A stretch of DNA of 64,000 nucleotides from Clostridia bacterium (GTDB lineage Bacteria > Bacillota > Clostridia > Christensenellales > Aristaeellaceae): contig CAAGII010000016.1 in assembly GCA_900769875.1 (NCBI GenBank), positions 14,795 to 78,794 on the forward strand. The letters run 5' to 3'. The stretch's first letter is position 1, and every line of letters starts with the position of its first letter. The notes beneath the pieces were generated by a model. That model did no database searches and was not told the origin of the DNA. It saw nothing but the letters and a program-made list of their open reading frames with translations. Both the position numbers and the translations under genes were made by a program. Below are positions 12,990-43,855 of this stretch, piece by piece.

Positions 12990-13041
12990 ACAATAAGTTG
13001 GTCACGCAATACATTGGTATATGGGAGGTGGCGGGCAGTTG

Positions 13042-23421: not shown

Positions 23422-23457
23422 AAAGGGCATGATCCTTTCATCGGGATCATGCCCTTT
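23422..23457. terminator. bidirectional intrinsic terminator between the kinase gene and the end of the EPS operon
   Basis: AAAGGGCATGATCC-tttcatcg-GGATCATGCCCTTT forms a perfect 14-bp stem. A/T runs flank both sides. Confidence 0.7.
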
Positions 23458-23505: not shown

Positions 23506-25389
23506 TTATTCTTCCCCGGAGGCGGGGTTTTCCTCCATCTGTGCCGCTTCGGGGTGCTGCGCTTCTACGGATTGCTGCGCTTCCTCGGGCTGCTGCGCTT
23601 CTTCGGATTGCTGCGCTTCCTCGGATTGCTGCGCTTCCTCGGGCTGTAGCGCCTGCTCAGGCATGGCTGTGCGCAGCCTCTCCGCCTCCTGCGCCTCCTG
23701 CTGATAGGCTGCGCTGACGGTCATGCGCACATGCCCTTTGGCGAGCGCATCCGCCATGTCAAAATGCGTGTGATCCATGTGCTGCTGCTCTGCGCCCGCA
23801 GCGCTCTGGTAGACCAGCTTCACCGCAGGTTCCTCAGCCGCATGCTCACGCCACTCAAACACACAGATCACCGACAGAAGAATCAGAATCGGAATGATGC
23901 TGTAATGGTAGCGCACCTGCGTTTCCAGCAGCATAAAGCTCAGCGCTGAGGCAAGGAAGTACAGCATCGACAGCATCTGCAGCGGCATGGGCGCGCGCTG
24001 CCTGCGCCATGCCTCGATGGCGCCCAGCATCGAAAGCAGCAGGATCGCCATATACATCGGTCTTGTAAGCGTACGCACCTTTTCCAGCGACGCGCTCAGT
24101 TCCTCGGTCAGCGTCTGCTGCTGCCCCGCCCAGAGCAGATTCCAGTCGATGCCGAAATCATCCGTCTGCCAAAGATCGCGGAACTTGTAGACCATCAGAT
24201 TCAGCACGTTTTCGGGCTCTGCGGACATGCGGTCGATTGCGCGCTGCATGGCTGCGGCGTGCGCCTCGTTCGCTGAACCGGTCTGCTCGTAGGCGTCTGC
24301 GAAGAAATCCGCGTCCTCCTGATTCCAGATGCCCTTGTGCTCGGCATTCAATCCCACCATCATGTTGTAGCCGGAGGCGTTCAGTCCGGAAGCCGGCTGC
24401 TCCATGATGATGTCCTTGATGGCGCGCGTCATCACGTTTGCGCCGCCAAGGTAAAACATGACCGCCACCAGCACGCACAGCCAGCCCTTGGAGAGCATCA
24501 CACGCATGCCCTCGGTCTTGGCCTTGCCCGTCGGATCGCCGCCGGTCATCACCTGCACCACAGCCCACGCCGCCATCAGGAGCAGCGCCATGGGGCGGAT
24601 CGCGCCCGCAATCGCGGTCATGACGCCAATGAGCGGCAGCGTCAATACCGCGCGCAGCGGAGAGGCGACATACAGGCTGTTCGGGCCGCGGTCGATCTCG
24701 TATACCATCATGTCCAGCGCCAGCAGCGTCATCATGGTGTAGCTCGGCTCGGTCGCCACCATGGTGCCGTACAGGATGTGCGAGGGCCACAGGCTCATCA
24801 GCGCCATGCCTGCCACCGAGGCCGCCTTGCCCATGGTACGGTACGCGATGCGGCCTACCAGCACCACCGAAATCATGCTGCACACGAGGTTCGCATACAG
24901 CGCGTTCTGCACGCTTGCGCCAAAGACGCGGAACACGGGCAGCAGCACCAGCATTGGGTAGCCGATGGTGTGCGGATACTGCGCGATATAGCGGCGATCC
25001 ACCTCTGCCTCGGGCGATAGCATGGTGCCGCGGAGAAGATGATTGGCCATGCGGTAATACGTTTCAAAGTCGGACTCGGGCTCCAGTACAATCCCGTGAA
25101 TCGTGCGAAGGCGCAGATACAGTCCCAGTCCGATCACCAGCGCGGATGCGGACAGCCACAGCGTGTTGCGCAGCCATAGCGGCATCCGGGGCGCGGCGCG
25201 GTTCACCACACGCACGCCAAGGAAGCATGCCAGCATCATACCCGTCAGGGACAGAAGGTACGCGCCCTGCAGCAGATACTCGCGCTCGGTTGCCCGGGTG
25301 TTGTATTCCAGCGCCGCGCTCAGCGCAAGGCCCATGCACATGATGAACAAGCCCAGCATCACATATTCCAGCGCGTTTTTTTTGCGCAT
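23506..25389 (-). CDS. GT-C-type (PMT_2/ArnT-like, GT39/83-like) polytopic glycosyltransferase with an acidic repeat tail
   Basis: The first-loop string LEPESDFETYYRMANHLLRG is followed by YPHTIGYPMLVLLPVFRVFGAS...LVCSMISVVLVGRIAYR...LMSLWPSHILYGTMVATEP. This matches the layout of PMT_2-type GT-C enzymes. It has ~12 TM helices. The C-terminus is PEEAQQSEEAQQSEEAQQPEEAQQS. Confidence 0.65.
   Translation of the reverse strand: MRKKNALEYVMLGLFIMCMGLALSAALEYNTRATEREYLLQGAYLLSLTGMMLACFLGVRVVNRAAPRMPLWLRNTLWLSASALVIGLGLYLRLRTIHGIVLEPESDFETYYRMANHLLRGTMLSPEAEVDRRYIAQYPHTIGYPMLVLLPVFRVFGASVQNALYANLVCSMISVVLVGRIAYRTMGKAASVAGMALMSLWPSHILYGTMVATEPSYTMMTLLALDMMVYEIDRGPNSLYVASPLRAVLTLPLIGVMTAIAGAIRPMALLLMAAWAVVQVMTGGDPTGKAKTEGMRVMLSKGWLCVLVAVMFYLGGANVMTRAIKDIIMEQPASGLNASGYNMMVGLNAEHKGIWNQEDADFFADAYEQTGSANEAHAAAMQRAIDRMSAEPENVLNLMVYKFRDLWQTDDFGIDWNLLWAGQQQTLTEELSASLEKVRTLTRPMYMAILLLSMLGAIEAWRRQRAPMPLQMLSMLYFLASALSFMLLETQVRYHYSIIPILILLSVICVFEWREHAAEEPAVKLVYQSAAGAEQQHMDHTHFDMADALAKGHVRMTVSAAYQQEAQEAERLRTAMPEQALQPEEAQQSEEAQQSEEAQQPEEAQQSVEAQHPEAAQMEENPASGEE
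23538..23661 (-). repeat. in-frame 18-bp tandem repeat (about 4 near-perfect and 2-3 degenerate units) encoding (E-E-A-Q-Q-S/P)n
   Basis: Plus-strand units are ttgctgcgcttcctcggg (23572-23589), ctgctgcgcttcttcgga (23590-23607), ttgctgcgcttcctcgga (23608-23625) and ttgctgcgcttcctcggg (23626-23643). Degenerate copies lie on both sides. Confidence 0.9.
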
Positions 25390-28300
25390 CAGGCATTCCT
25401 CCCCTCGTTGGCTTTCAGATCGCGTCTGCCCATTGCCCTGCGAATCAGGGCGCGCAGCAGCACGGTGGCTGCTGTGATGACCATCAGGTCATGACAAAGC
25501 ATGAAGGTGAACAGCTGCTTGTTGTTGTCCGCAAAGCCGTTGCCGATCACCGTCAGCGGATACTGGAAGGCGCCTGTCAGCATCACGCACACAAACAGGA
25601 ACGCCAGCAGCCGCTGCTGCGCGCAGCGCCCGCGCGAGCACATGACGCGGATGCACACAATCAGCCCAGCGCCGTAAAGCAGCACATACTGCCAGAAGGC
25701 CTGACACGCAGTGTAGGGACGCACAGCCTGCCAAAGATTGAAGCGGTACATTCCCTCGTGCAGATCATAGCGCTCGTCCGTATACGCCATGAAATGACTG
25801 TGCAGGGTGCGGGACTCCTGCGCCGCGTGGTCAAGCATTTTCAGCAGATCGCCCGGATGGCGCAGATAGTAGCGCACCATGGTAAGCGCGTTGATTTTGC
25901 TGTAGATGGCTTCCTCCGCCTCGTCCGACAGCATGGGATACACATAATCCTCGTCCGCATGGTAGGCATGCTTGCCGATGTCCGCCTTGAGCACGGGATC
26001 AAGCCCCAGCTCCTCCATGGCGGCGTCCACATCGTCCGCAATCATCAGCGCGCCGTAGAACACGCTCTGCCAGACCGTCTGCTTGGAGGAAATCTCGTCG
26101 TTCTTGCGGTACACGCCCACGCTATCCCATGCCACATAACCGCACAAAAGCGTCATCACCAGCGCATAGCACACGCTGCGAGCCCACATGGGCAGACGCT
26201 GTACCATGGTCGAATGCTCCTTGCGCACAGGGCGATGGTAGACGCCCAGCACGATCATCAACGCAAGCCCTGATGGCATCGCCAGCAGCAGCTGCGCCTT
26301 GGAGCATGTCAGCATCCTGACGGAGACGGCAAGCAGCGCCAGCCAGAGCATGCGCCGCCTGCCTGCGCGCGGCATGACCATCAAATGCACCGCGCAGGCC
26401 AGCATCAGCATCAGCGAGGTGCAGATGGTGCTTTCGCCAAAGAGCGAATTGTACCATGCCACATAGTTTTCGCCAAAGAGCATCGCCACCAGCAGCACGC
26501 CCATGAAAAGCGTGCCGCGTCCAAGCAGCGGATAGAGATCGTGCAAAAGCAGAAGCACCGCCGCAAGGGTCAGCGCCAGCAGAATCCATGCCTGCACCAG
26601 CGTGGAGTACGGCGAGCCGGTTACAAGGCTCCACAATCGCACCAGCATCGACGGGAAAATGAGCGAATAGGTCGGGTCGGCGGAGGTCAGACGCTGCGGA
26701 TGGAACGGCTCGCGGTAATCGTATTCCTCAACCACGCGCGTGGCAAGCTGATCGCTGCTGTGATCCAGCAGCTCCCTTGTCCAGTACAGATCGATCTGCT
26801 CCATCATGCGGCCAAAGTCGCCGTTGTTCACACCGCCGATGTGCCGTGCAGGCAGCAGCAGACAGCAGCAGATCGTAAATGCCATGATCGCGCAGAGCCA
26901 CATGACCGCGCTGCGTCCCGGTCTCAATCTGTCAAGGCGGGCAAAAGGCGCGCGCACCTCCGCATGCTGCCACGGGAGCGACAGTGGCGCGTCATGCGAA
27001 GCAAGGAAGGCGAGCAGCCGCTGCGTGAACAGCGCAAGCGCCGCGATACCGCCCAGCAGACCAAGCCATCCCAGGAAAAAGAACATCACCTTTGTCATGG
27101 CTACGTCAAGTCCGCCTGTCAGGATCATGGAGACAGGCAGCATCAGCGCGCCGCACGCACAAAGCGAGGAAAGCGCAAGGCACAGCCTGCGCAGCCCCTG
27201 TCTGCACGCAATGGACAATCCAAGCAGAGCAAGCGCCGCGCCAATCATGCGCCAGGTGGTCGCCTCGAGGCCGCCCTCGCCAAACAGCAGGCGAAGCAGC
27301 ATCAGGGGCGAAGGGCGTTCAAAGCCGCGCTCCCAGCCTTCATACACCACGCGCCCGTTGATCGCGTCATAATAATGGTTCTTCTTGTCGCGCAGAAGCT
27401 GCGTCACAAGCTCCGGATGCTTCAGGCAGTAGGCCACGCGCTTTTCAAGGCTGATGGCCTCGCGCAGATGCTCGTCACCGCGCGGGTCATGCGCAAAGAG
27501 CGACGCATCGTCATAATAGGAGCGGCCGATGTCACGCTGATAATCCGCGTCCAGCCCGAAGCCCGCCAGCACGCGCTCAGGATCGTCCGTCACCTGAAGG
27601 TAGCCCTGAAACACCGCCAGATGATTGGCCGCGTCCGAGCGGATATCCGCCTGGGCTGCGACGCTCACCGCCACGCTTGTGCCGCCCGCGACGAGCGCGG
27701 CAGCCGTCAGCACGCAGTAGAACGGCCTCTCGCAGCGCTGTGGCAGCGCATGCCAGACCGTCATCAACACGCAGATAACCACAGCCGGCAGGAAGGCAAG
27801 CATCTGCGGCTGCGTCTGTAACAGCGCAACGCCCGGCACAAGCACCATCGCTACCCGCAGGAAGCCCGAGCCCCGGTCGCCGCACAGTGCGTTGACCGTG
27901 CAGCCGATCAGGAGCATCAGCCACGCCATGGCGGCGCCCATGGGATAAAGGCTGTTCAGATAGGCGGTGATATCGCTGTGCATCATCGCCAGCGTCATCA
28001 CCGCAGCGCTCGCGATGGCTGCCGTGCGGCTGCGCCGGTACAGCCCGCTCACCGCAAGGTAAACGCCCAGCGCGATCATCAGCGCGTAGGCGCAGGCAAG
28101 CAGCCTTGTGTCAAAGAGAAGGCCAAAGGGCTGCGTCACAAGGCGCACCAGCGCTGCCGGGTACAGCATGCCGGGCTGTCCGGGCTTCAAAAGCGACGCA
28201 TAGTCGAACCGCTGATAGGCGAACGCTTGCGCCACGTCGCCCGGCTGCACCTGCTCGTCCGCCCATGTGATGCGCAGCTGCTCCATCGCGCCGACATAGG

Positions 28301-28415
28301 AGGCGTCGGAGGTTACGCTGACCTGCGGCGCAGCAAAGAGCGTATACAGGATGGCGCAAAGCGCCAGCAGCGCGGCCACCGCGCCCACTTCCCTGCCCCT
28401 TCGCTGATCGGTCAT
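25389..28415 (-). CDS. 1008-aa polytopic membrane protein built from two copies of an unrecognised module
   Basis: GAGGTGG lies 4 nt upstream of ATG 28415. There are ~20 hydrophobic helices. Halves aa 1-495 and 500-1008 share ordered motifs (see findings). The stop overlaps the next start (TGATG at 25387-25391). Confidence 0.8.
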   Translation of the reverse strand: MTDQRRGREVGAVAALLALCAILYTLFAAPQVSVTSDASYVGAMEQLRITWADEQVQPGDVAQAFAYQRFDYASLLKPGQPGMLYPAALVRLVTQPFGLLFDTRLLACAYALMIALGVYLAVSGLYRRSRTAAIASAAVMTLAMMHSDITAYLNSLYPMGAAMAWLMLLIGCTVNALCGDRGSGFLRVAMVLVPGVALLQTQPQMLAFLPAVVICVLMTVWHALPQRCERPFYCVLTAAALVAGGTSVAVSVAAQADIRSDAANHLAVFQGYLQVTDDPERVLAGFGLDADYQRDIGRSYYDDASLFAHDPRGDEHLREAISLEKRVAYCLKHPELVTQLLRDKKNHYYDAINGRVVYEGWERGFERPSPLMLLRLLFGEGGLEATTWRMIGAALALLGLSIACRQGLRRLCLALSSLCACGALMLPVSMILTGGLDVAMTKVMFFFLGWLGLLGGIAALALFTQRLLAFLASHDAPLSLPWQHAEVRAPFARLDRLRPGRSAVMWLCAIMAFTICCCLLLPARHIGGVNNGDFGRMMEQIDLYWTRELLDHSSDQLATRVVEEYDYREPFHPQRLTSADPTYSLIFPSMLVRLWSLVTGSPYSTLVQAWILLALTLAAVLLLLHDLYPLLGRGTLFMGVLLVAMLFGENYVAWYNSLFGESTICTSLMLMLACAVHLMVMPRAGRRRMLWLALLAVSVRMLTCSKAQLLLAMPSGLALMIVLGVYHRPVRKEHSTMVQRLPMWARSVCYALVMTLLCGYVAWDSVGVYRKNDEISSKQTVWQSVFYGALMIADDVDAAMEELGLDPVLKADIGKHAYHADEDYVYPMLSDEAEEAIYSKINALTMVRYYLRHPGDLLKMLDHAAQESRTLHSHFMAYTDERYDLHEGMYRFNLWQAVRPYTACQAFWQYVLLYGAGLIVCIRVMCSRGRCAQQRLLAFLFVCVMLTGAFQYPLTVIGNGFADNNKQLFTFMLCHDLMVITAATVLLRALIRRAMGRRDLKANEGRNA

Positions 28416-28449
28416 GCTTCCACCTCATTTCCATAAGCGTATGCGCAAA

Positions 28450-31089
28450 TCAGAAACGGCTGTTCGTTTCCACAGCGCGTGAGCGCTCCGCCGCTTCCTC
28501 CGGCGTGATCGCGCCATCCTCCAGCGCGAGGCTGTCCACCATCGCAAGGCCGAAGCGGAACAGCCTGCCATCCGCGTCCTGCTGGCATCCGACCAGCAGC
28601 TGTCCGTCATAGGGGACGCACGGGCTGGTGAAGCTCGTCTGCACCGCGCCGTTCACGGCGACCGTGTAGTCGTCCCCGTGCTTTGCGATGACCAGGTGCA
28701 TGCTGCTGCGCCCGGAAGGCAGCTCATACCGCCACGTCTGCAGCCCGCCGAGATACAGCGTGACCGACTCCGTATCGTCCTGCCGCAGCATCAGTCCGCG
28801 ATAGCCAACATCCGGCTGCTCAGCAAAGCAGGACAGGTACACGCCCTTGTTGCTGCCGCGCTGGAGCACGACGGTGGTATCCAGCGTCCAGTCCTTATTG
28901 GCGTCAAAGAGCTGCACGCCGGTCTCCACACAGCGTTCCGCGCCATTGCCGAGGAAGGGGTGCGGCATGGTGTAGGCAACCGTTGAAACAACTGCCTCAT
29001 GCACCGTGGGAAGCGCGGCGGGCTCATACCGCCACGCAAGGATTTCCACCTCCGTCAGACACCCGGCCAGCACGGTCAGGCTGTTCACGCGGGTCTGGCT
29101 CTGGCGGAACACCTGTCCGCTCCCGTTCAGCTCAGCGCCCACCAGCAGCTGGCCTGCGTAGGCTTCCGCCGGAGATAGCACGCCGTCAAGCAGCTTCTCA
29201 CCGTTCAGATACACGGTGTAGGCATTCATGTTCTTCACCACGGCAAGGCGCGCTGGTTCATCGAGGACGACAGGCACGCTGATGCCCTGATTGTTGCCAA
29301 ACACGATATTGAGGCTTCCGTCCGAAAGCTGACGAACCAGCAGTCCGCGATAGTGATCGGTTTCCTCTGCAAAGTCGGCAAAATACACACCGTCGCCGCT
29401 ATTTTGCGCGGGCAACAGCTCGGACAGCAGGGTAAAGCACGAGCCCGCGTCCTCAAACAGGCGCAGTCCGGTATCCACATACGCGGGATACCCATCCGTG
29501 CCGCCCACAAACTGCTCCGGCAGTGTGTAGATGACCTCGGGCTTCTCCACGCCCTGCCCCAGCGGCAGCGGCATAGCAGGCAGCGTCGGGGGATTCCAGG
29601 CCTGCACCTGCGCGCTGGTCATCACGTGGTCATACACTTCCAGATTCAGCACATGCGTGCGGCTGAAACGGAATTTTTCACCGTTCGCGCTCAACTCCTG
29701 ACAGCCGACAAGCAGGTTGCCTGCGTAGGCGTTGCAGGGAAGCTGATAGCTGCTGAGCACTACGATACCGTTCCAGTAGACGGTGTAATGGTCAATATCC
29801 TTGACGATGGCGATGGTTGCGGTATCGCCCTGATACTCGGGCATCTGTATTTCATACTTTTCGCCCAGCAGCAGCGTCACCGTATGCTCCCTCGTCTTGC
29901 GCATCAGCAGGCCATAGTAGCCGTCCGCCACATTTTCGGAGAAGCAGGACATGTACACGCCGTCGTCTCCAACGGTTTTCATGTCGATACGGGTCAGCAG
30001 CGTCCACGATTGATAGCGATTGTCGTAGAGTTTGACGCCGGTGTCGATCATGCGGTTCACACCGTCGCCCGTGAACTGGGTTTCCATCGCGTAGGCGGCA
30101 TACTGGGCTGTGGCTGCGTTCTCTGTGCGGTTCCACAGATGTCCGTCGTCCCGCCTGCGGTCGGGCAACTGGAAGCGTTCGCTCAGATAGCGCCCAACGT
30201 CGGCGGTCAGCTTGGCGATGCCGCTGTATTGCAGATGACCGACATCATAAAAGTCGCTCGCGGGATCAATGCCGATCTCCTGCCAGTTTTTCAGATAATT
30301 CAGCGTCGGCACGCCGTATTCCTCGGCGATGGCAGTCAGGCGGTTGAGCTTCCTTGCTTCGCTCTCCGTCGCTTCATAGGGCGCAATCAGCAGCACCAGC
30401 TGCACGCCTTTGCTTTTACACAGGTCGATCATGCTGCGCAGATACTTTTCATTTTTATCCGAGAGCGGCTCCTGCCCGGTGATGGAGGCGTAATCCAGCA
30501 AATTGACATGCGCGATACGATCGGTCGGCAGCTGAATTCTGTTCACATCCAGCTCGCGGGTATAGTACCCGAAATCAAAATCGCTTGCTTCCAGCTCGCT
30601 GTAGCGGGTGTGGTAGTAGGGCATGCCCCACAGCGCTTCCACGGTCTTTTGCCATGTCGGAAAGGAAGCGAACGCGTTTGCGATCTTGTCAAGGCTCGGG
30701 CGAAGCGCAAGGGTGTTCTTAAGCGCGGCAGTTTCGGCGGAATAATCCACATCCGTGCCCGCCATGAACACCTCGACCACCGCAACCTGCGGCTTCTGGT
30801 ATTTCAGACCCTCCTTGAGGAAATAGTACGAGTTCCACAGCGGCTGCATGCCGCCCCACAGGCTGTAGCTTGCAATGCCGTAATCATCCCAGAGCATGCC
30901 GTTATCCACGTTCATGCCCACATGGGAGGAGCCGACCATCAGCACATCCACCGTGTCGGCAGGCAGGGCGTAGTATTTCTTCATGGGGGCGATCGCGTCG
31001 TCCGCCTTGGTGGACAGCACCTGATCCGTTACATAGTACGCTCCCAGCAGGAGCGTCAGAAACAGCACAACCGCAGCCAGCTTTTTCAT
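28450..31089 (-). CDS. membrane-anchored SGNH/DltD-like O-acyltransferase partner fused to three LamG/ConA-like domains
   Basis: I chose the start at MKKLAAVVLFLTLLLGAYYV (ATG 31089, GGAAAGGAG upstream). Block I-like LMVGSSHVG and block V-like FYDVGHLQYSG are present. Three ~170-aa repeats follow, each ending in YAGxLLVG(C/A)...G..FR. Confidence 0.7.
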   Translation of the reverse strand: MKKLAAVVLFLTLLLGAYYVTDQVLSTKADDAIAPMKKYYALPADTVDVLMVGSSHVGMNVDNGMLWDDYGIASYSLWGGMQPLWNSYYFLKEGLKYQKPQVAVVEVFMAGTDVDYSAETAALKNTLALRPSLDKIANAFASFPTWQKTVEALWGMPYYHTRYSELEASDFDFGYYTRELDVNRIQLPTDRIAHVNLLDYASITGQEPLSDKNEKYLRSMIDLCKSKGVQLVLLIAPYEATESEARKLNRLTAIAEEYGVPTLNYLKNWQEIGIDPASDFYDVGHLQYSGIAKLTADVGRYLSERFQLPDRRRDDGHLWNRTENAATAQYAAYAMETQFTGDGVNRMIDTGVKLYDNRYQSWTLLTRIDMKTVGDDGVYMSCFSENVADGYYGLLMRKTREHTVTLLLGEKYEIQMPEYQGDTATIAIVKDIDHYTVYWNGIVVLSSYQLPCNAYAGNLLVGCQELSANGEKFRFSRTHVLNLEVYDHVMTSAQVQAWNPPTLPAMPLPLGQGVEKPEVIYTLPEQFVGGTDGYPAYVDTGLRLFEDAGSCFTLLSELLPAQNSGDGVYFADFAEETDHYRGLLVRQLSDGSLNIVFGNNQGISVPVVLDEPARLAVVKNMNAYTVYLNGEKLLDGVLSPAEAYAGQLLVGAELNGSGQVFRQSQTRVNSLTVLAGCLTEVEILAWRYEPAALPTVHEAVVSTVAYTMPHPFLGNGAERCVETGVQLFDANKDWTLDTTVVLQRGSNKGVYLSCFAEQPDVGYRGLMLRQDDTESVTLYLGGLQTWRYELPSGRSSMHLVIAKHGDDYTVAVNGAVQTSFTSPCVPYDGQLLVGCQQDADGRLFRFGLAMVDSLALEDGAITPEEAAERSRAVETNSRF
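28483..30102 (-). repeat. three tandem ~170-aa domain repeats at protein level (LamG-like), approx 29590-30102, 29023-29535 and 28483-28983
   Basis: Columns align across the three copies. Examples are DTGVKLYDN/DTGLRLFED/ETGVQLFDA, GVYMSCFSE/GVYFADFAE/GVYLSCFAE, YYGLLMRK/YRGLLVRQ/YRGLMLRQ, HYTVYWNG/AYTVYLNG/DYTVAVNG and YAGNLLVGCQ/YAGQLLVGAE/YDGQLLVGCQ. Confidence 0.85.
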
Positions 31090-31105
31090 GGGAAGCTCCT
31101 TTCCG

Positions 31106-32599: not shown

Positions 32600-32687
32600 G
32601 GCAATTCTCCGTTCCGTCGATCGTCTTGTGATGCTCAGGCAGGTTCACGTCTTGCTTGCGCCCGTTTGTCGTCAATGTGCCGCCGAC

Positions 32688-34988: not shown

Positions 34989-35005
34989 GTGCATCATACC
35001 CTCCA

Positions 35006-36262
35006 TCAATCAGCCGATCTTTCCGTTTTATACCAGGTAACTTCCGTATTGGTGATGATGCGCTTCACCGTCATGTACAGCGCGCGCAGGACGACAACCA
35101 CCCACAGCTTGCAGTAGGAGAACAGCATCAGCATGACGATGAGCGCCGATTCCAGGTTGAACTCGTTCTTTTCAAGGCTCAGCGTCAGCATCACGTTGAA
35201 TTCAAACAGGATGCAGGCCATGACCCACACCAATGTGGACAGCCCTCCGAGGGTCACGTGCGCGTAGCCCAGGATGCCCAGCACAAAGATGGTGTCGGAG
35301 CATACCAGCGCCGTGGCCATCAGCAGGTAAACCAGCGAGTAATACAGTACGTCCAGGCGCATCCTGCCGCCCCGGGGATCGAAGATGTACTTGAAGTTGT
35401 TGGCCAGCACGTACAGATTGCCCATGGCCCAGCGGGTGCGCTGCTTGAACCAGATGTCCAGCCGGAACGGCTCCTGCTCCCATGTGACGGCAGCGGGGAT
35501 CTGCCGGATTTTGTAGCCCATGCGGTAAATGCGGAAGCTGATTTCCGTATCCTCGGAAAGCGCCTTCGGGTCCCATCCGCCGATCTTCTCAATGATGTGG
35601 CGGTGGATCACGAAATTCGTACCGGGAATGGTGCACAGTCCGAAGAAGAACCACCGACCCGCCTGATTCATGCACTGGTGCGCGAGGGTCTCGATGTTGA
35701 CAAAGCGGGTCAGCAGCGAGGCGTTGCGGTTGCGGGTGCGGAACTTGCCGATTACCGCGCCCAGCGAATCATCCGCCATCAGGTGCTCCACCAGAATGCG
35801 AAGCGCCTGCGGCTCCGGCGTGTTGTCCGCGTCATAGATGGCGAACACCGAGCCGCGCGCCACCGAGTAGCCGATATTCAGCGCGTTTGACTTGCCCGTG
35901 CCGCCCACCACATTGTCGGTGCTGACCACCATCAGCATGCGATCCGGATTCTCCGCCTGAATGGCGGCGAGCGCCTCCGCCGTGTTGTCGGACGAGTTGT
36001 CGTTGATGACGATGATCTCATAGCGATCCTTCGGATAGTCGAAGCGGAGCAGCGCCTGCACCGTGCGGCGGATGACGGCGCTCTCGTTATGCGCGGGCAC
36101 CATCACCGATACGAAGGGGTACTCCTCCAGCGGTATGTGAGGGTCCTCCTTGCCCATGCGGTAGTAATAGATGAAGCCGCCCACCGACAGCAGCACATTG
36201 ATGCCCATCAGCGTCCAGATGGCGATCATGGAAAAAAGGGTCAGGTAATCAATCAGACTCAT
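35006..36262 (-). CDS. processive family-2 glycosyltransferase (YdaM/BcsA-core-like synthase, no PilZ domain)
   Basis: It reads VSVMVPAHNES, AIYDADN (the DxD motif), LSEDTEISFR (TED-like) and KQRTRWAMGN (QxxRW). TM helices lie at both ends. It is 418 aa with no C-terminal extension. Confidence 0.88.
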   Translation of the reverse strand: MSLIDYLTLFSMIAIWTLMGINVLLSVGGFIYYYRMGKEDPHIPLEEYPFVSVMVPAHNESAVIRRTVQALLRFDYPKDRYEIIVINDNSSDNTAEALAAIQAENPDRMLMVVSTDNVVGGTGKSNALNIGYSVARGSVFAIYDADNTPEPQALRILVEHLMADDSLGAVIGKFRTRNRNASLLTRFVNIETLAHQCMNQAGRWFFFGLCTIPGTNFVIHRHIIEKIGGWDPKALSEDTEISFRIYRMGYKIRQIPAAVTWEQEPFRLDIWFKQRTRWAMGNLYVLANNFKYIFDPRGGRMRLDVLYYSLVYLLMATALVCSDTIFVLGILGYAHVTLGGLSTLVWVMACILFEFNVMLTLSLEKNEFNLESALIVMLMLFSYCKLWVVVVLRALYMTVKRIITNTEVTWYKTERSAD

Positions 36263-37827: not shown

Positions 37828-38689
37828 ACACCAGCTCTGCTTCCACGGCCTTGCGGAAACGGATCATATCGTTGCCGTAGATTTCCTTGTTGTACTGCTT
37901 GCAGGCTACGCGGACATCCACCTTGGTGCCTGCCTCCAGAATATGGTCGAAGCGATTGGTGGTCGCAAGCGCGTTGAGCAGTCTGCCGCGCACGATGCTG
38001 CTGTCGCGCTCGTTGGTGGTCAGAAGAATGACCAGCGAGCCCTTGTCATCCACCGTATACACACGGTCCTCCACACGGACGCTGTCCCTGATGACCTCGC
38101 TGATGCACTTGCGCAGGTCAAGGAAGCTGTTGGCAGGCAGCATGCCGCGCAGCTCCGACTCATAGCGCAGCTGCACCTCCATCAGCGACACAGGCAGGTT
38201 GTTGCGTTCGCAGTAGTGCACCATGATCTGCAGATCGCGATAGAGCGCGCGCAGGTTGTACATGCCGGTGACATTGTCCACCAGCACCAGCTCCTCCACC
38301 TGCTGGCGCAGCATCTCATTCTCGCTGAACAGACCCTGAATGCCGGCGCAGTACATCTGCGCGCCCACAGCGCCAAGCATGGGCAGCGGCGCAAGCGCAT
38401 AGTCCAGCAGATACAGCACATGTCCGCGGATGTACACGCCATAGAGCTTGTAGGTGATCCACACGCAGGTAATGGTGCCGCACAGCGCAAGGCAGGCCGA
38501 GGGTCGCCCGAAATAGCCGACAAGCACCGCGACGTCCATGGCAAAGAGCACCACCAGGTAGGTCACCCGCATCTCCTCAGACGCAAAGGTCATGATCAGC
38601 GCCTGTGCCATTGCCCAGAGGATCAGTAGCAGCATCGCTACGTCACGCAGAAGCTGGGCCTGTTGTTCCGTTCTTCTCACGGCACTCAC
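37817..38689 (-). CDS. membrane protein with a degenerate GGDEF domain retaining the RxxD I-site (YdaK/PelD-like candidate c-di-GMP receptor)
   Basis: Four N-terminal TM helices precede DNVTGMYNLRALY (compare DxLTGLxNRR). The I-site RVED (aa 205-208) lies exactly 5 residues before DDKGS, which occupies the GG(D/E)EF position (38036-38077). The GTG start overlaps the upstream stop (GTGA). Confidence 0.75.
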   Translation of the reverse strand: MSAVRRTEQQAQLLRDVAMLLLILWAMAQALIMTFASEEMRVTYLVVLFAMDVAVLVGYFGRPSACLALCGTITCVWITYKLYGVYIRGHVLYLLDYALAPLPMLGAVGAQMYCAGIQGLFSENEMLRQQVEELVLVDNVTGMYNLRALYRDLQIMVHYCERNNLPVSLMEVQLRYESELRGMLPANSFLDLRKCISEVIRDSVRVEDRVYTVDDKGSLVILLTTNERDSSIVRGRLLNALATTNRFDHILEAGTKVDVRVACKQYNKEIYGNDMIRFRKAVEAELVYDV

Positions 38690-40203
38690 TCCTCGTCAAG
38701 CTCGATATTCTTGGTGCGGTTGAGCATCTCGGTGATAAAGAGCACCACCAGCACGTCAATGGTCATCCCCATCAGGAAGCTTTCGCGCAGCAGCTCGCTG
38801 TCGCCCGACATCACCAGCACCGTCAGGATTTCCAGCACAGCCATCACAATGAGCAGGCCGATCAGCTCCTTGTAGCGGGCCTCCCAGCGCTCATCCTCCC
38901 GGGTCATCTGCTTCTTGCGCATCAGCAGCACCACGCCCAGCAGCAGCACCATACCGGCTGTTTTCGGGGCGCTCTGCGCCTTGAAGGTGGACCATACGCT
39001 CATGAACGGCGTTTTGGCCATCGGTGGCAGACCGACGCTCTGCTCGTAGTTGCCGCTGTAGTCCGACCTTGTGATAAACGCCTGATACACGCCGCGGTCA
39101 AACATGCCCAGCAGCGACACGGGATGGCTCAGGTAATAGCGCAGCACATCCACCGTGCTGTAGCGGTCAAAGAAGCCCTCGTCCAGCACGCCGTCCTCCG
39201 GCAGCACCACGGGATACTCCTGATCGCCATAGGTGTCCGTAAGCACGGAATAGCGCGGCTCAATTCCGAAGTATTCCAGCGCCCGGGTCGGGTCATCAGC
39301 CTGAAAGAGCACGCCGCGCGTCATCTGATTGTACTTGGCTGTGCGCGTCTGCCGATCCAGCATCACGCCCGTGTACATCACGCTGCAAACGATGAGCAGG
39401 AGCGCTGTCACAAAGCTCAGCATGCGCAGCGGCAGATCCTTCCTTTCGGTAAACACGCGCCAGCAGATCACGGCTGCGACGATTCCCAGCAGCGCGCAGT
39501 ACCTGTTGACATTGGTCAGCGCCAGCACGCCGGCTGCCAGCATCACAAGCGAAAGTCCCGTCTGTTTGCCGCCGGGCAGGAGAAACAGCACGTCGGCAAC
39601 GCACAGCAGCGCAAGCGCCTCCAGGGGCGATGTGTAGAGCGACGCGAAACGCACCACCAGCGTGGAATCGGCAAACACCAGCACGCTCGCCGCCGCAAGC
39701 AGCAGCCCCTCGGAATACCTCGGCACGCGCCTGAGCATATTGTACAAAAGCGGGTAGAGCAGCGCAAGGTAGATCGCCATGTACAGCCCCGCAAGGAAGC
39801 GCATATCAAACAGCGTATCTCTCGTGAGCAGCGTATCCAGGCCGATCGCAAGGCGCGCCATGACCTTCAGCAGCATCGGCGTGACGCCCGGCGGCATCGC
39901 GTTGTCCTCAATATAATAGGTACGTTCGTAATAGCTGAAGTACGCTTCCGTGCTTTCCGGGTTGATACGCGACAGCCCCACATCCGCGAGCACCGTATCC
40001 AGACTGCCGTCGTTGGACAGGCCGAGATACGGCGGCAGAAGCAGCATATAGGTCATCAGCGCCGCGATGATCAGCAGCGCGACCAGCGCCAGATGTGCCG
40101 GACGGTACTGATTGCGCATCGACCGGTCGAACCGGCGGATCGCTTCCAGCAGGTGGAAATAGCATCTCGCGATCCATTTGAACGCGAGCACAATCCATTT
40201 CAT
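38686..40203 (-). CDS. 505-aa polytopic membrane protein, third copy of the unrecognised module seen in 25389-28415
   Basis: I chose the start at MKWIVLAFKW (ATG 40203, GGAGGAG upstream). It carries motifs LSNDGSLDTVL, VLFQADDPTRALEYFGIEPRY and VLRYYLSHPVSLLGMFD. Their order and spacing match both halves of the 1008-aa protein. Confidence 0.75.
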   Translation of the reverse strand: MKWIVLAFKWIARCYFHLLEAIRRFDRSMRNQYRPAHLALVALLIIAALMTYMLLLPPYLGLSNDGSLDTVLADVGLSRINPESTEAYFSYYERTYYIEDNAMPPGVTPMLLKVMARLAIGLDTLLTRDTLFDMRFLAGLYMAIYLALLYPLLYNMLRRVPRYSEGLLLAAASVLVFADSTLVVRFASLYTSPLEALALLCVADVLFLLPGGKQTGLSLVMLAAGVLALTNVNRYCALLGIVAAVICWRVFTERKDLPLRMLSFVTALLLIVCSVMYTGVMLDRQTRTAKYNQMTRGVLFQADDPTRALEYFGIEPRYSVLTDTYGDQEYPVVLPEDGVLDEGFFDRYSTVDVLRYYLSHPVSLLGMFDRGVYQAFITRSDYSGNYEQSVGLPPMAKTPFMSVWSTFKAQSAPKTAGMVLLLGVVLLMRKKQMTREDERWEARYKELIGLLIVMAVLEILTVLVMSGDSELLRESFLMGMTIDVLVVLFITEMLNRTKNIELDEE

Positions 40204-40247
40204 GCCGCTCCTCCTTTCCTGATGAAGATGGGCTGGCCGGGCGCGTG

Positions 40248-41858
40248 TCAGCCTCCTGAGGGCTGATGTGCGGCTGCGCCCTGCCACGCGAGCAGCGCCT
40301 GCAGCACATCATATGCGTAAAGCGAGCGATCTGTCGCCCGGCCATAGCCGCCCGCGAGCGGCCCAGTGAAGCAGCGAAGCCGCTCCATGCGCGCAAGGGC
40401 AAGCCGCTGCAGCTCTTCCCTGCCGCAGATCTGCCCGATCTGCGCCGCAAGGGCATAGATCGCGGTGGATTCATACGCATAGCCCGGCACGACACGCCCC
40501 TGCGTATCGTAGCTGGCGTAGAGCGGGCCCTGCCGGAGCATAGCTTCCAGCCATTGCAGGGTACGCTCCTGAACAATTCCCGCCTCTGCGGCGCGGAGCA
40601 CGGTCACCATCGCCTCGGTCATGTGCAGCGTATCGCCCGTATAGGTATCCGTCGCGGAATCGTAGCGCGGATAGTAGAGCGGAAACGCGTCGCTGATGAG
40701 GCCGCCTGTCAGGATTGCCTCCGCGCGGTCCGCCGCGCCATTCCAGCGAACGTCCAGCGGGGCAATGCGGCGCATGGCCGCAGGATGCTGATAGCACAGC
40801 GTGACCTGCAGCGTGGTCTGTCCGTCCGCATACTGGGAGAAATCGCGCATGAGCTGCTGCTGCACGCACGCGTTGTAGAGCGCGTGCGCCATCTGCGACG
40901 CGTCCGCGCGGTAGCCTCCCCACGCGCTTTCGGCGCTATAGAGCGCGTCGATCACGCGCAGATCATCCAACGACGCGTTGACAGCGCCCTTTTCGCCATC
41001 CACCGTCTGCCATGCAAGCAGTCCGTTCTCAAGCAGCGTATCCCGGGCGGCGTGCCACACAAGATCAAACAGCGCCTGATCGCCCGACTCCAGCGCATAG
41101 CGCATCAGCAGTCCCTGCGTTTCCGAGAGCACGACGCGCCCCGGCGTGATCCCGTCCTCCGAGACTACGGCGGAGGACGGCATGGTGCCGTCCTGCCGGA
41201 TCAGCGTCCGCGCAAAGGCGTCCAGCTGCTTAAGCTGCCCGCCGCGCGCGTAGTCCAGGATGCGCGCGATCCCATCGCTATCGGGCATCGCCGTGGTACT
41301 CAGCACCAGCCGCCCCTGCGCGTCCAGCACTGCAAGACTCGGCACACTGTGCAGCCCAAGCGACGCAAAGAGCGACGCCTGCGGATCCATCAGTGTATCA
41401 CGCGAAATTCCAAGGGCGCGCAGCTGCTCGCTCGCCTGCGCGTAATCATCGCCGCGCACGCCCTCGCGGCAGACCAGTAGAAGAGGGCTGCCCGCAGCCT
41501 CCGCAGCGGCGGCGGCTTCCTCAAAGCCGCTTTCCAGATAGCGCTTGCAGTCTCCGCACCAGCTCGACCAGAAGAGCAGCAGCGCCGGCTTGCCGCGCAT
41601 ATCGCGCAGCTCCTGCGTCTTTCCCGCGCCGTCCGCAAGCGGCAGATCGAAGGTCAGATAAAGGCGCGTCGGATCAGGCTCCAGATCCGCGGCCTGCAAC
41701 AGACCGCCGGACGTGGGCGTAGGCGTCTGCGCCGCGCCAGGCTGCGCCTCCTCGCCTCCCATCAGAAGCAGCGCGGCCAGCGCAAGCATCACAAGCGCGG
41801 CCAGCACGCAAAGGACGATCAGCACACAAATGCTTCCTGTAAGCCTTTTGTCCTTCAT
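40248..41858 (-). CDS. membrane-anchored fusion of a TlpA/ResA-like thioredoxin domain and a GH8-like (YdaJ/BcsZ-like) glycoside hydrolase domain
   Basis: I chose the start at MKDKRLTGSICVLIVL (ATG 41858, GAGGTGA 7 nt upstream). The string LLLFWSSWCGDCKRYL places WCGDC at 41547-41561. Later SETQGLLMRYAL and NASLDDLRVIDALYSA resemble the GH8 SEGQ(G/A)YGM and (S/T)DGDLxIAxAL regions. Confidence 0.6.
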   Translation of the reverse strand: MKDKRLTGSICVLIVLCVLAALVMLALAALLLMGGEEAQPGAAQTPTPTSGGLLQAADLEPDPTRLYLTFDLPLADGAGKTQELRDMRGKPALLLFWSSWCGDCKRYLESGFEEAAAAAEAAGSPLLLVCREGVRGDDYAQASEQLRALGISRDTLMDPQASLFASLGLHSVPSLAVLDAQGRLVLSTTAMPDSDGIARILDYARGGQLKQLDAFARTLIRQDGTMPSSAVVSEDGITPGRVVLSETQGLLMRYALESGDQALFDLVWHAARDTLLENGLLAWQTVDGEKGAVNASLDDLRVIDALYSAESAWGGYRADASQMAHALYNACVQQQLMRDFSQYADGQTTLQVTLCYQHPAAMRRIAPLDVRWNGAADRAEAILTGGLISDAFPLYYPRYDSATDTYTGDTLHMTEAMVTVLRAAEAGIVQERTLQWLEAMLRQGPLYASYDTQGRVVPGYAYESTAIYALAAQIGQICGREELQRLALARMERLRCFTGPLAGGYGRATDRSLYAYDVLQALLAWQGAAAHQPSGG

Positions 41859-41894
41859 ATGCGCATCACCTCTGACATGCATTTGCCCCGCTTC

Positions 41895-41922
41895 ATTGTA
41901 CAGCTTCATGACGGTTTGTCAA
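41895..41922 (-). promoter_or_regulatory. sigma-A promoter of the EPS operon
   Basis: The minus strand reads TTGACA (41922-41917), a 16-nt spacer, then TACAAT (41900-41895). It lies ~35 nt upstream of ATG 41858. Confidence 0.6.
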
Positions 41923-41950
41923 TAGGAAGCGGCTGGAAAAAGGCCGCTCA

Positions 41951-43087
41951 TCAGGGGCGTTCTGCAAGACGCCTTCCGAATTCCTGCAAAATTGCCACAA
42001 TCCGCGCGGAGGTCTGCCCATCGCCGTAGGGATTGATCGCGTGGCTCATGCGGTGGTACAGCGCCTCGTCGCCAAGCAGGCTGCATCCCGCCCTGTATAC
42101 GCTCTCCTCCTCCACACCGGCAAGAATGGCCATGCCGCTGTCCACCACCTCGGGACGCTCGGTCTCCGTGCGCAGCACCACCACGGGCTTGCCCAGCGCG
42201 GGCGCCTCCTCCTGCAGGCCGCCGGAATCGGTCATCACCAGATAGCAGCGGCGGATGAGGTTGTGCATATCCTCCACGTCCACCGGCTCCATGAGATGGA
42301 TACGAGCAGCACCGCCCAGCTCCTGCTTCACCACCTCGCGAACCGCGGGATTGGGATGCATGGGGTACACCACCTGCACATCGGCAAAGGCTTCCGTCAT
42401 CCGGCGCACGCCCCGGCAGATTGCATGCAGCGGCTGACCGAGGTTCTCGCGGCGATGCGCCGTCATCAGCACCCAGCGCCCCTCGTTCAGCGGGAGCTCG
42501 CGCAACGCGGGAGAGGCAAACGTGTAGTCGTCCCGCACCATTTGACGCAGCGCGTCAATCACCGTGTTGCCCACCACATGCACGCCCTCGGTCACGCCCT
42601 CGCGCTCAAGGTTGATGCGGCTGTGCTCCGTGGGCGCGAAGTGGAGCGTGGCCAGTCTGCCGGTCAGCGTGCGGTTCATCTCCTCCGGGAAGGGCGAGTA
42701 CCTGTCAAAGGAGCGCAGCCCCGCCTCCACATGCCCCACCGCCACCTGCTGATAGAAGGCCGCCAGCGCCGCAGCAAAGGAGGTGGTGGTGTCGCCATGC
42801 ACCAGCACGATGTCCGGCCTGAGCTGACGGAGCACCTGCTCCATGCCCTCCAGCACGCCCGTGGTGATGGAGGTCAGCGTCTGCCCGGCCTTCATCAGGT
42901 TGAGATCAAAATCAGGCGTGATGTCAAACTGACGCAGCACGCTATCCAGCATCTGCCGGTGCTGCGCCGTCACGCATACCACGCTGCGGATACCGTCCGC
43001 AGCCTCCAGCGCCTTGACAAGCGGCGCCATTTTAATGGCTTCCGGTCTTGTTCCGAACACGCTGAGTACCACAAGCTCCCGTCCCAT
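41951..43087 (-). CDS. wecB: UDP-N-acetylglucosamine 2-epimerase (non-hydrolysing)
   Basis: It reads LSVFGTRPEAIKMAPLVKAL...VCVTAQHRQMLD...VLVHGDTTTSFAAALAAFY...GHVEAGLRS...MTDSGGLQEEAP, the canonical WecB/MnaA strings. I chose the start at MGRELVV (ATG 43087). Confidence 0.92.
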   Translation of the reverse strand: MGRELVVLSVFGTRPEAIKMAPLVKALEAADGIRSVVCVTAQHRQMLDSVLRQFDITPDFDLNLMKAGQTLTSITTGVLEGMEQVLRQLRPDIVLVHGDTTTSFAAALAAFYQQVAVGHVEAGLRSFDRYSPFPEEMNRTLTGRLATLHFAPTEHSRINLEREGVTEGVHVVGNTVIDALRQMVRDDYTFASPALRELPLNEGRWVLMTAHRRENLGQPLHAICRGVRRMTEAFADVQVVYPMHPNPAVREVVKQELGGAARIHLMEPVDVEDMHNLIRRCYLVMTDSGGLQEEAPALGKPVVVLRTETERPEVVDSGMAILAGVEEESVYRAGCSLLGDEALYHRMSHAINPYGDGQTSARIVAILQEFGRRLAERP

Positions 43088-43122
43088 TCGTATACGCCGC
43101 CTTTCAATTGTATACCACTGTA

Positions 43123-43151
43123 ATTTTACCACCCGCAAAAATGGCTGTCAA
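43123..43151 (-). promoter_or_regulatory. sigma-A promoter of wecB
   Basis: The minus strand reads TTGACA (43151-43146), a 17-nt spacer, then TAAAAT (43128-43123). Confidence 0.6.
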
Positions 43152-43235
43152 TGTTGATTTACCCTAATTACGGGGCGTTTTGTTCCCATTTGCAGGCCTT
43201 TGGGAGCATGGGAGCGGGCACCTCCCGCCCGCCCC

Positions 43236-43264
43236 TTGACACCGGCAGGTGTCGCTGGTATGAT
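43236..43264 (+). promoter_or_regulatory. sigma-A promoter (extended -10) of the PNPOx-like gene
   Basis: TTGACA (43236-43241), a 17-nt spacer ending in TGG, then TATGAT (43259-43264). Confidence 0.6.
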
Positions 43265-43317
43265 GGTTGCGGTCCATATTCCAAAGCAAGCGCGGACACG
43301 CGCAGACAGGAGATTCC

Positions 43318-43743: not shown

Positions 43744-43770
43744 TCGGGCGCAGCTTGTTACAATTGCTCG

Positions 43771-43800
43771 TTGGACAAAGCGGTTCAGATATGATACAAT
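43771..43800 (+). promoter_or_regulatory. candidate promoter of the secreted-protein gene
   Basis: TTGGAC (43771-43776), an 18-nt spacer ending in TGA, then TACAAT (43795-43800). Confidence 0.45.
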
Positions 43801-43855
43801 CATGATGCAGCCCCCTCGATTGATGAAGCGCGGCAGGCTGCACGAGGAGGTTCCC

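Follow-up and report, generated by a model that had tools for sequence, protein, structure and literature searches.

The closest described relatives of the locus treated here are two exopolysaccharide (EPS) systems, Pss of Listeria and Yda of Bacillus. The locus occupies positions 23506-43087 of a 64-kb window, by which we mean the whole stretch of DNA analyzed (contig CAAGII010000016.1 of a Clostridia bacterium), and consists of eleven co-directional genes on the minus strand, wecB and P1 to P10 in the order of their transcription (Table 1). In Listeria, the polymer associated with pssA-E and pssZ is cell-bound and consists of β-1,4-linked N-acetylmannosamine (ManNAc) carrying α-1,6-linked galactose (PMC13492145), and the receptor PssE possesses a dead GGDEF site (DKDDA) with an RxxD motif five residues upstream and binds cyclic diguanylate (c-di-GMP) with a Kd of 0.79 µM (PMC4125290). 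The B. subtilis counterpart of this receptor, YdaK, carries a degenerate SDERI motif, and the exchanges R202A and D205A abolish EPS (PMC5422440). B. subtilis ydaJKLMN has the layout of the Yda-type operon of Lysinibacillus (PMC5422440, PMC13274460). For comparison, the Lysinibacillus operon (L084) was employed as a Bacillales proxy for B. subtilis, and Listeria PssA-E were compared by their published description. The operon on the Lysinibacillus chromosome is a bare one, encoding a glycoside hydrolase (GH, 352 aa), a GGDEF protein (285 aa), a DUF2334 protein (482 aa), a family-2 glycosyltransferase (GT2, 423 aa) and a BcsB-like protein (680 aa). Pss is reportedly surface-bound with all of pssA-E being needed, and the DUF2334 counterpart in Listeria is likewise said to be needed for the cell-associated polymer.

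Since the proteins of the window share the family features of Pss and Yda, and since wecB lies within the cluster, we read the locus, with a probability of roughly 70%, as a Clostridial, ManNAc-type member of the Pss/Yda class of synthase-dependent EPS systems, gated post-translationally by c-di-GMP and equipped with the full set of optional tailoring genes. The class itself is already known and no new kind of system is revealed. The original prediction, made from the letters of the window, had taken ydaJKLMN with its undefined polymer as the model and had known of no characterized synthase system with this combination of genes. The B. subtilis polymer is indeed still chemically undefined, but the closest characterized relative of the locus is Listeria Pss, the polymer of which is defined. 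The characterized systems of the class are Listeria Pss and Bacillus Yda. Our literature search met no description of an obligatory pair of GT-C glycosyltransferase genes, of the near-invariant CxxC motif described below, or of the fully decorated eleven-gene variant. A BcsA/B-WecB-hydrolase-deacetylase locus of C. difficile 630 was predicted in 2020 to make a ManNAc-rich EPS (PMC7710045). That bioinformatic remark, made in passing and likened here by description, has the hydrolase modelled as GH113 and itself mentions neither GT-C genes nor a receptor, a thioredoxin or a pair for O-acylation (PMC7710045). The gts operon of L. acidophilus was considered as a relative and set aside, as its receptor is of the EAL type and it lacks both a BcsB and a DUF2334 protein.

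Synthase core, receptor and hydrolase

The order of the core genes had been likened to ydaJKLMN, and hydrolase, degenerate GGDEF protein, DUF2334 protein, GT2 and BcsB-like protein do follow each other exactly as in Lysinibacillus. The Lysinibacillus GT2 is 43% identical to P5, the receptor (RQTD-KKFRF-REDHI) is matched over its full length by the profile of the P3 family (E = 1.5e-11), and the hydrolase is matched by the Clostridial GH profile (E = 7e-49) in its GH part only. Within 10 kb to either side, Lysinibacillus lacks a WsfD-like gene, a second GT-C gene, the thioredoxin fusion, wecB and the MBOAT pair, all of which are discussed below. With Listeria Pss, the locus has in common a GT2 without PilZ domain, a BcsB-like protein, a membrane-anchored GGDEF receptor with an I-site, a PssB-type protein and a GH126 hydrolase. 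The ManNAc backbone of Pss fits the presence of wecB in the cluster, and the α-1,6-linked hexose on ManNAc fits the WsfD-like genes. In contrast, Listeria Pss is not reported to have an MBOAT pair, a double WsfD gene or a PMT_2-like gene, and the receptor gene is the last in pss but the second or third in the Clostridial locus.

Almost all domain calls of the original prediction were recovered. Profile searches, failure of which it had named as a refutation, returned its GT2, BcsB and GGDEF assignments alike, with the DUF2334, QxxRW GT2 and BcsB-like calls all recovered by Pfam. In P5, the residues D144xD146, E237-D238 and Q274RTRW278 are conserved in at least 95% of 81 sequences and invariant in a 12-sequence alignment, and neither Pfam nor NCBIfam gave a match for a PilZ domain. 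Among equivalog models, P5 reaches 171 bits for PgaC_IcaA (TIGR03937; cut-off 422) and 62 bits for CelA (cut-off 699). The open reading frame (ORF) of P6 could be extended to a TTG at 35009. P4, with its transmembrane (TM) segment at residues 472-490, gave no usable match in a PDB sequence search.

As a single sequence, P3 shows a weak GGDEF match only. The profile of its family (31 homologs) matches GGDEF structures, the best being DosC (4ZVE, E = 3e-9), with RVED placed on the I-site RSSD and DDKGS on GGDEF in register, which upholds the earlier degenerate-GGDEF call. In the motif layout RVED-RVYTV-DDKGS, five residues separate the RxxD of the I-site from the dead active-site motif downstream. 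Both R205 and D208 are invariant among the 31 aligned sequences, and in a set of 73 sequences RxxD is present in every variant listed and the GGDEF site is always degenerate. Judged by these motifs, P3 is predicted to be a c-di-GMP receptor of the PssE/YdaK type. Since Rfam returned neither a c-di-GMP riboswitch nor any other RNA element (at the gathering threshold for the whole window and at E <= 1 for 41700-43900), P3 is the sole tie between the locus and c-di-GMP. The gene for a MASE6-GGDEF diguanylate cyclase lies 10 kb from the locus (13021-14136, plus strand); this enzyme has its GGDEF motif intact, lacks an RxxD I-site and is a candidate for the source of the signal.

P1 was said to carry a thioredoxin domain fused to a GH8-like hydrolase. 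The thioredoxin part was recovered (Pfam AhpC-TSA 5.7e-9, Redoxin 5.9e-8; PDB Etrx 2YP6 1.2e-12), behind a membrane anchor consisting of a single TM segment at residues 10-28. The C-terminal domain is a glycoside hydrolase but belongs to GH126, the Pfam GH8 score of 19.1 bits lying below the cut-off of 24. Its matches in the PDB are CPF_2247 (3REN, E = 1.3e-37) and PssZ of Listeria (6R2M, E = 6.5e-9), the two proteins of CAZy family GH126 with solved structures, and the conserved residues E246, D298 and R301 are equivalent to the catalytic Glu84, Asp136 and Arg139 of that family (PMC7479077). The fusion of thioredoxin and GH126 was already remarked from sequence in 2020 (PMC7479077), and its CxxC (WxSWCxxC) is retained in 63 of 64 P1 homologs. 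In Listeria, the hydrolase is unlinked and without thioredoxin domain, whereas it is fused and part of the cluster in P1. Invariant cysteines also occur in other proteins of the cluster, C211 and C510 in all 76 homologs of the BcsB-like P6 and C265 in 75 of 76 homologs of the DUF2334 protein P4. As far as conservation can tell, the P1 thioredoxin and the cysteines of P4 and P6 may form an extracytoplasmic pair of redox enzyme and client in strict anaerobes.

The original prediction placed wecB immediately upstream under a promoter of its own. A promoter-like site matching 11 of 12 positions was indeed found there, but wecB is not separate from the operon and counts as its first gene, because many genomes have it within the cluster and because, in close relatives, it directly precedes P1 with no promoter between them. 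It is encoded within 10 kb to either side in 32 of the 50 related loci counted (see below), often inside the cluster, and this conserved place indicates UDP-ManNAc as the substrate. In a distant locus, wecB again stands beside a GT2 of 39% identity (L087), and on such sequences its link to the synthase is older than the Clostridial form of the cluster.

Table 1. Genes and transcription signals of the EPS locus (positions in the window)
Feature	Coordinates	Strand	Description	Profile match or remark
wecB	41951..43087	-	UDP-GlcNAc 2-epimerase	Pfam Epimerase_2, E = 1e-117
P1	40248..41858	-	N-terminal anchor, extracytoplasmic TlpA/ResA-like thioredoxin (WSSWCGDC), GH126 hydrolase (PssZ/YdaJ/CPF_2247 family)	
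P2	38686..40203	-	WsfD/YfdI_N-family polytopic membrane protein, GT-C-like	
P3	37817..38689	-	Membrane-anchored (4 TM) degenerate GGDEF protein (DDKGS), PssE/YdaK type	
P4	36259..37827	-	Secreted, C-terminally anchored DUF2334 protein, PssB/YdaL type	Pfam DUF2334, 1.7e-11
P5	35006..36262	-	Processive family-2 glycosyltransferase, 418 aa, 1+3 TM	Glyco_tranf_2_3, 4.9e-33
P6	32688..34994	-	BcsB-like co-polymerase, N- and C-terminal membrane segments	Pfam BcsB, 6.1e-45
P7	31106..32599	-	MBOAT O-acyltransferase, AlgI/PatA/DltB-like	Pfam MBOAT, 1.1e-33
P8	28450..31089	-	Membrane-anchored extracytoplasmic protein, N-terminal GSSH...DxGH domain and three LamG/concanavalin-like repeats	
P9	25389..28415	-	Two WsfD/YfdI_N modules in tandem (residues ~1-500 and 501-1008)	
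P10	23506..25389	-	GT-C-fold membrane protein (PMT_2/GT39-like), acidic repetitive (EEAQQS)n tail	
Promoter-like site	43123..43151	-	TTGACA-17-TAAAAT with extended -10 TG	Ahead of wecB, 11/12 matches
Internal promoter-like site	41895..41922	-	TTGACA-16-TACAAT	In the 92-nt wecB-P1 spacer
Terminator hairpin	23422..23457	.	14-bp stem	Common to the convergent two-component-system genes

Distribution of the cluster

Relatives were collected with a degenerate-pattern scan for the GT2, one genome per species, which found at least 567. The eleven window proteins were mapped onto the best 80 loci, in which GT2 identity ranges from 66 to 92% (Ruminiclostridium, Lachnospiraceae and Clostridium neonatale included), and the 50 of these with full 10-kb flanks served as the counting set. 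Genes for a WsfD-like protein, a degenerate GGDEF protein, a DUF2334 protein, a GT2 and a BcsB-like protein occur in that order in all 50 loci, and the BcsB-like gene adjoins the GT2 gene in every one of them. The thioredoxin-GH126 fusion is present in 49 and the P10-type GT-C gene in 48 of the 50. The double WsfD gene (17/50), the MBOAT gene (13/50) and the P8-type partner (12/50, always beside MBOAT) are less frequent. All eleven families come together in six loci, in five of these in the order of the window. The original prediction had presented four additions to the core as an expansion of this locus. Optional modules are only the double WsfD gene and the MBOAT/LamG pair, whereas three of the four additions are normal: as one WsfD-like gene, the PMT_2-like GT-C gene and the thioredoxin fusion are present in 48-50 of the 50 loci, they represent the Clostridial norm and not a local expansion. 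The cluster is widespread among Clostridia, and the window holds its most heavily decorated form.

The closest named relatives of the locus are metagenome-assembled genomes (MAGs) of the Aristaeellaceae, class Clostridia, and the window-type order is carried by Aristaeellaceae and 'Faecalibacterium sp. CAG:74' types. A metagenome contig (ENA ERZ27229727) possesses an identical GT2 gene and the same 11-gene order. The order is also identical in three close relatives (L004-L006), at protein identities down to 51% for P1 and 56% for P8. Three further loci (L007, L008 and L011) keep the order of the window at identities down to about 43%, with wecB outside the fetched flank. In all mapped loci the genes of the cluster are co-directional and contiguous, a single unassigned ORF standing between them in one contig (L050). 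That contig is labelled Bacteroidaceae bacterium and encodes all eleven families in a different order; its label probably stems from a mistake in binning or labelling and not from a transfer outside the Bacillota.

Farther away, the 30 named clusters of GT2 relatives formed at 50% identity include Lysinibacillus, Culicoidibacter, Streptococcus parasanguinis, Caloramator and several non-Bacillota MAGs, and neither Listeria nor B. subtilis is among these 30. Distant GT2 relatives of 39-44% identity lie in other mosaics, for example one consisting of GT2, BcsB, a 383-aa unknown protein and GGDEF (L086, 9001-14421) and another of wecB, three unknown proteins, GT2 and a 623-aa unknown protein (L087, 1591-8822).

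Side-chain and O-acylation modules

P2 and the two halves of P9 had been described as three copies of an unrecognized polytopic module. There are three homologous copies indeed (hhalign probability 100 between the N- and C-terminal modules of P9, and 99.9 between each of them and P2), but the module is recognizable as WsfD/YfdI_N. The NCBIfam model for the glycan biosynthesis hexose transferase WsfD (NF051875, cut-off 80) matches P2 with 302 bits (8.3e-90) and P9, in two stretches, with 368 bits (5.6e-110), and precomputed annotation assigns the P2/P9 family to Pfam PF27133 (YfdI_N). Permissive Pfam scans of P2 and of the P9 halves gave noise only. The top PDB fold matches of the AlphaFold model of P2 (AF2, pLDDT 83) are nearly all GT-C enzymes (Emb, STT3, DPY19, PglB, Pmt), though the matches are weak. 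Its first outside loop carries an SNDGS motif with D65 (505-aa numbering) that is more than 90% conserved; the P2 ORF could be extended to a GTG at 40287. In the C-terminal module of P9, NNGD[FY]GRM is present in nearly all of 22 sequences, whereas the motif of the N-terminal module is variable.

P10 is unrelated in sequence to the WsfD modules. It had been called a PMT_2-type GT-C protein, and its GT-C fold is borne out by the AF2 model (pLDDT 88, pTM 0.88), for which Foldseek lists STT3, AglB, ArnT, Pmt4, ALG3/9 and PglB with a probability of 1.0 and a best E of 1.7e-4. However, the window protein has no Pfam match of its own to PMT_2 or PMT even at E <= 10, and its profile found no usable match among PDB sequences. 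About one fifth of the P10 homologs listed carry the PMT_2 or PMT families PF13231 or PF02366 in precomputed annotation, and the name GT39 is given to three. Within the first outside loop, D107 shows a conservation of at least 90%. Homologs of P10 range from about 520 to 950 aa, and with lengths varying in this way the C-terminal tail seems to be variable in length; in the window, the (EEAQQS)n tail is encoded by an 18-nt tandem repeat (23555-23642, 4.9 copies, 88% matches).

For Paenibacillus alvei, WsfD has been assigned the transfer of α-1,6-linked glucose from a lipid-linked donor onto O-6 of ManNAc in the S-layer glycan (PMC2943079). The site assigned to WsfD is the position that carries galactose in Pss. 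Both P. alvei WsfD/WsfH and the Gtr systems of phages and E. coli (GtrA/B/S, YfdGHI) are taken to transfer a single hexose from a lipid carrier to a finished glycan outside the membrane, as is predicted for P2 and P9. In contrast, the WsfD and Gtr systems act on glycans made by Wzx/Wzy or ABC-transporter pathways and encode the donor synthase GtrB/WsfH next door, whereas the EPS here would be made by a synthase and no such gene stands beside P2 or P9.

The second kind of tailoring would be O-acylation. The original prediction of a pair formed by an MBOAT protein and an SGNH protein with three LamG repeats stood for the MBOAT and for the three repeats; the SGNH call was not recovered by searches and relies on the GSSH...DxGH motifs. 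The hallmark histidines of P7 (WRRWH291 and WH331GA) are conserved in 18 homologs, and its score against the DltB model is 150 bits (cut-off 375). Laminin_G_3 matches P8 in three stretches and is present in eight of nine homologs (best E = 6e-14). In the N-terminal domain of P8, about 320 aa long, S55, H56, D282 and H285 are invariant and stand in the classical SGNH order; one homolog gave a weak DUF1574 match (0.0054). As with P7 and P8, an MBOAT protein adjoins an anchored extracytoplasmic Ser/His/Asp partner in AlgI/AlgJ/AlgX, WssH/WssI, PatA/PatB and CcsH/CcsI (PMC7710045, PMC10302187). P8 differs from these known partners in its three LamG lectin repeats and in not being of the DHHW or AlgX type by hidden Markov models.

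Points against the reading and possible other acceptors for the GT-C proteins

Several results speak against a Pss/Yda-class system with the tailoring proposed here. The profile of P4 matches its Lysinibacillus counterpart weakly and that of P6 does not match at all, and the equivalence of these proteins is drawn from shared Pfam families and gene order. No Asp or His of P4 is conserved in 95% or more of 76 homologs, the best being H362 with 67 of 76. For the N-terminal domain of P8, no match was found in Pfam, NCBIfam or the PDB, either with the single sequence or with the profile. The fold matches of P2 to GT-C enzymes are weak (best E = 0.018, TM-score 0.3-0.4). A Pfam scan of all flanking genes of the 64-kb window detected no polyprenyl-phosphate-hexose synthase of the GtrB/WsfH/CsbB type and no GtrA flippase, and none is encoded inside the related clusters, which leaves the donor of the GT-C proteins unaccounted for locally. 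Finally, a 7.6-kb contig (JGI 3300047160) encodes a YfdI_N and PMT_2-like pair with no synthase genes nearby. On this contig, a distant YfdI_N/WsfD-like protein (P0286, 821-2245) directly precedes a 601-aa PMT_2-like protein (2265-4070), and the WsfD-like and PMT_2-like GT-C types may work together as a pair in their own right.

Reviews label PssB a 'deacetylase', with no obvious metal-binding triad behind that label in the P4 family here. An activity of DUF2334 as a CE4-like deacetylase was considered and is unsupported by residue conservation.

The alternative that survives best, though we consider it unlikely, is that P2, P9 and P10 are not side-chain transferases of the EPS at all, but act on another acceptor such as teichoic acid, S-layer or proteins, or have a structural, export or anchoring role. 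Relatives in PMT_2/GT39 glycosylate proteins, the poor conservation of the loop-1 motif in the N-terminal module of P9 fits such a role, and so does the missing lipid-sugar donor synthase; the pair on the synthase-free contig argues that it can work independently. The need for all of pssA-E in surface-bound Pss, as it is reported, would also fit an essential and non-decorative function. Weighed against this, the WsfD-like and P10-type genes accompany the synthase in 50 and 48, respectively, of 50 divergent Clostridia loci, contiguous and co-directional with it, the conserved Asp motifs of the first outside loops argue for catalysis, and the WsfD that has been studied is assigned the glucosylation of ManNAc, the predicted backbone sugar here.

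Operon structure and genomic surroundings

On the sequence evidence, the eleven genes form a genuine operon, in a Clostridia bacterium from gut or rumen. The ten genes foreseen between 41858 and 23506 were confirmed as ORFs at these coordinates, all co-directional, and the coding pattern of the operon ORFs (G+C at codon positions one to three: GC1 ~0.6, GC2 ~0.4, GC3 ~0.8, in a genome of 60% G+C) is absent from the long antisense ORFs. With gene-caller starts, the spacings from wecB to P10 are +92, +44, -4, -11, -4, +11, +88, +16, +34 and -1 nt, so that the junctions among P1 to P10 (-11 to +88 nt) are as tight as had been claimed. The overlap motifs GTGA (38686-38689), ATGA (36259-36262) and TGATG (25387-25391) were found as described, but 35006-35009 reads TTGA and not ATGA. 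A GGAGG-type ribosome-binding site precedes most of the genes.

At the end of the operon, the terminator expected from the first reading is present, with a 14-bp stem (AAAGGGCATGATCC/GGATCATGCCCTTT) that is part of a fold of -45.6 kcal/mol (z = -7.0). Likewise, the near-consensus promoter upstream of P1 was found where it had been placed (41922-41895), with 11 of 12 positions matched. A promoter scan of about 20 kb detected 12 promoter-like sites, compared with 6.1 +/- 2.1 in shuffled sequences, and only two reach a score of 11/12. The site ahead of wecB is likely the main operon promoter. The wecB-P1 spacer measures 92 nt (41859-41950) in the window and contains the promoter-like site, whereas in the close relatives L004-L006 it measures 20-45 nt and no promoter is present; the internal promoter before P1 seems to have been gained in the lineage of the window.

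These data also bear on the possibility, which we judge improbable, that the 19.6 kb are not one unit but a synthase operon beside independently regulated envelope genes (the MBOAT pair, the double WsfD gene and P10). Across genomes, the genes are shuffled as blocks, namely the WsfD-like gene with the degenerate GGDEF, DUF2334, GT2 and BcsB-like genes; the P10-type gene with the thioredoxin-hydrolase gene; the MBOAT gene with its P8-type partner; the double WsfD gene; and wecB. In addition, an 88-nt gap precedes the MBOAT gene, and weak internal promoter-like matches (9/12) occur. However, a scan of the locus found no terminator-like site in any intergenic gap, the spacings are short and a ribosome-binding site stands before most of the genes. 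Wherever the modules occur, they adjoin the synthase in the same direction, apart from the one interleaved ORF in L050, and the 11-gene order is identical in L004-L006.

Beyond the operon, an OmpR-type response regulator and a HAMP histidine kinase (21213-23382, plus strand) converge on its hairpin terminator, and a second response regulator/kinase pair is situated at 53672-55827. A separate sugar-utilization cluster on the minus strand (841-12869) encodes a DUF5696 protein (864 aa), a Yip1-domain protein, an NHL-repeat protein, two ABC permeases, a 992-aa solute-binding protein and a GH42 β-galactosidase.

Nature of the polymer and proposed pathway

The weakest of the alternatives, an operon for cellulose or poly-N-acetylglucosamine (PNAG), in which P5 and P6 would make a glucan or β-1,6-linked GlcNAc and the MBOAT pair would then acetylate this product in the manner of Wss/Ccs acetyl-cellulose, could draw on the BcsB match (Pfam, 6e-45), on PgaC_IcaA followed by CelA as the best NCBIfam matches of the GT2 and on the MBOAT-partner pairs that accompany cellulose synthases in Pseudomonas and Clostridia (PMC7710045), but is very improbable in view of a 418-aa GT2 without PilZ that stays far below both cut-offs (171 of 422 bits for PgaC/IcaA, 62 of 699 for CelA), the absence from the locus of PgaD/IcaD, of a CE4 PgaB/IcaB and of the Ccs parts PilZ-CcsA, GH5 and DHHW, a hydrolase of GH126 and not of GH8 or GH5, the conserved wecB and the fact that the characterized relative with BcsB and an I-site receptor makes a ManNAc-Gal polymer and not cellulose (PMC13492145). 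The Clostridial Ccs acetyl-cellulose family was also considered as a relative in its own right and rejected, as PilZ-CcsA, GH5 and DHHW are absent from the locus.

For a Pss/Yda-class system, the following pathway can be proposed. WecB, by its family an epimerase, would make UDP-ManNAc, its role as supplier of the polymer precursor being suggested by its conserved place in the cluster. P5 and P6, according to their families and motifs, would polymerize and export a hexosamine chain, most likely of β-linked ManNAc if sugar and linkage follow those of Listeria Pss. Binding of c-di-GMP at the RxxD I-site of P3 would switch the synthase on, as PssE and YdaK suggest, and P4 would act on the emerging chain outside the membrane. 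There, P2, both halves of P9 and P10 would attach side-chain sugars, drawing on polyprenyl-phosphate-sugar donors whose synthesis is encoded elsewhere in the genome; family and fold, the latter clear for P10 and weakly matched for P2, place them among GT-C-like proteins, and for donor, acceptor and linkage WsfD serves as the model. P7, as an MBOAT protein, would pass acyl groups, probably acetyl, across the membrane to P8, which may hold the glycan with its lectin repeats and transfer the acyl group. The anchored GH126 domain of P1 is expected to trim or release the polymer, and its thioredoxin domain with the conserved CxxC might control the redox state of a pair of cysteines in a partner protein.

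A bolder proposal, which we put forward tentatively and hold to be rather doubtful, is that the locus represents a distinct Clostridial EPS subclass, in which a Pss-type ManNAc backbone is obligatorily glycosylated on the outer face by two dedicated GT-C proteins, a WsfD-like and a PMT_2-like one, and the thioredoxin-hydrolase, with a catalytically competent CxxC, couples production to the extracytoplasmic redox state via the two invariant cysteines of P6. If this were true, the GT-C pair would have expanded to four modules in the lineage of the window and been joined by the MBOAT/LamG O-acylation pair, and the locus would stand for the first EPS pathway of the synthase type that has GT-C side-chain glycosylation and redox control built in. 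Under this proposal, PssA of Listeria, by analogy predicted to be WsfD-like, would be the missing α-1,6-galactosyltransferase.

Pss-type polymers shield Listeria from desiccation and disinfectants and drive aggregation. To our knowledge, matrix polymers controlled by c-di-GMP are almost unstudied in the Clostridia considered here, of which at least several hundred species, including gut and rumen lineages (Aristaeellaceae, CAG-74 relatives, Lachnospiraceae, Ruminiclostridium), encode a richer version of the Pss-type machinery. The conserved fusion of thioredoxin and hydrolase is notable in this machinery, and the WsfD-like family is nominated as the enzyme class that branches ManNAc polymers. 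As such, the locus provides a concrete list of parts with which one synthase backbone may be diversified by side-chain sugars and acyl groups.

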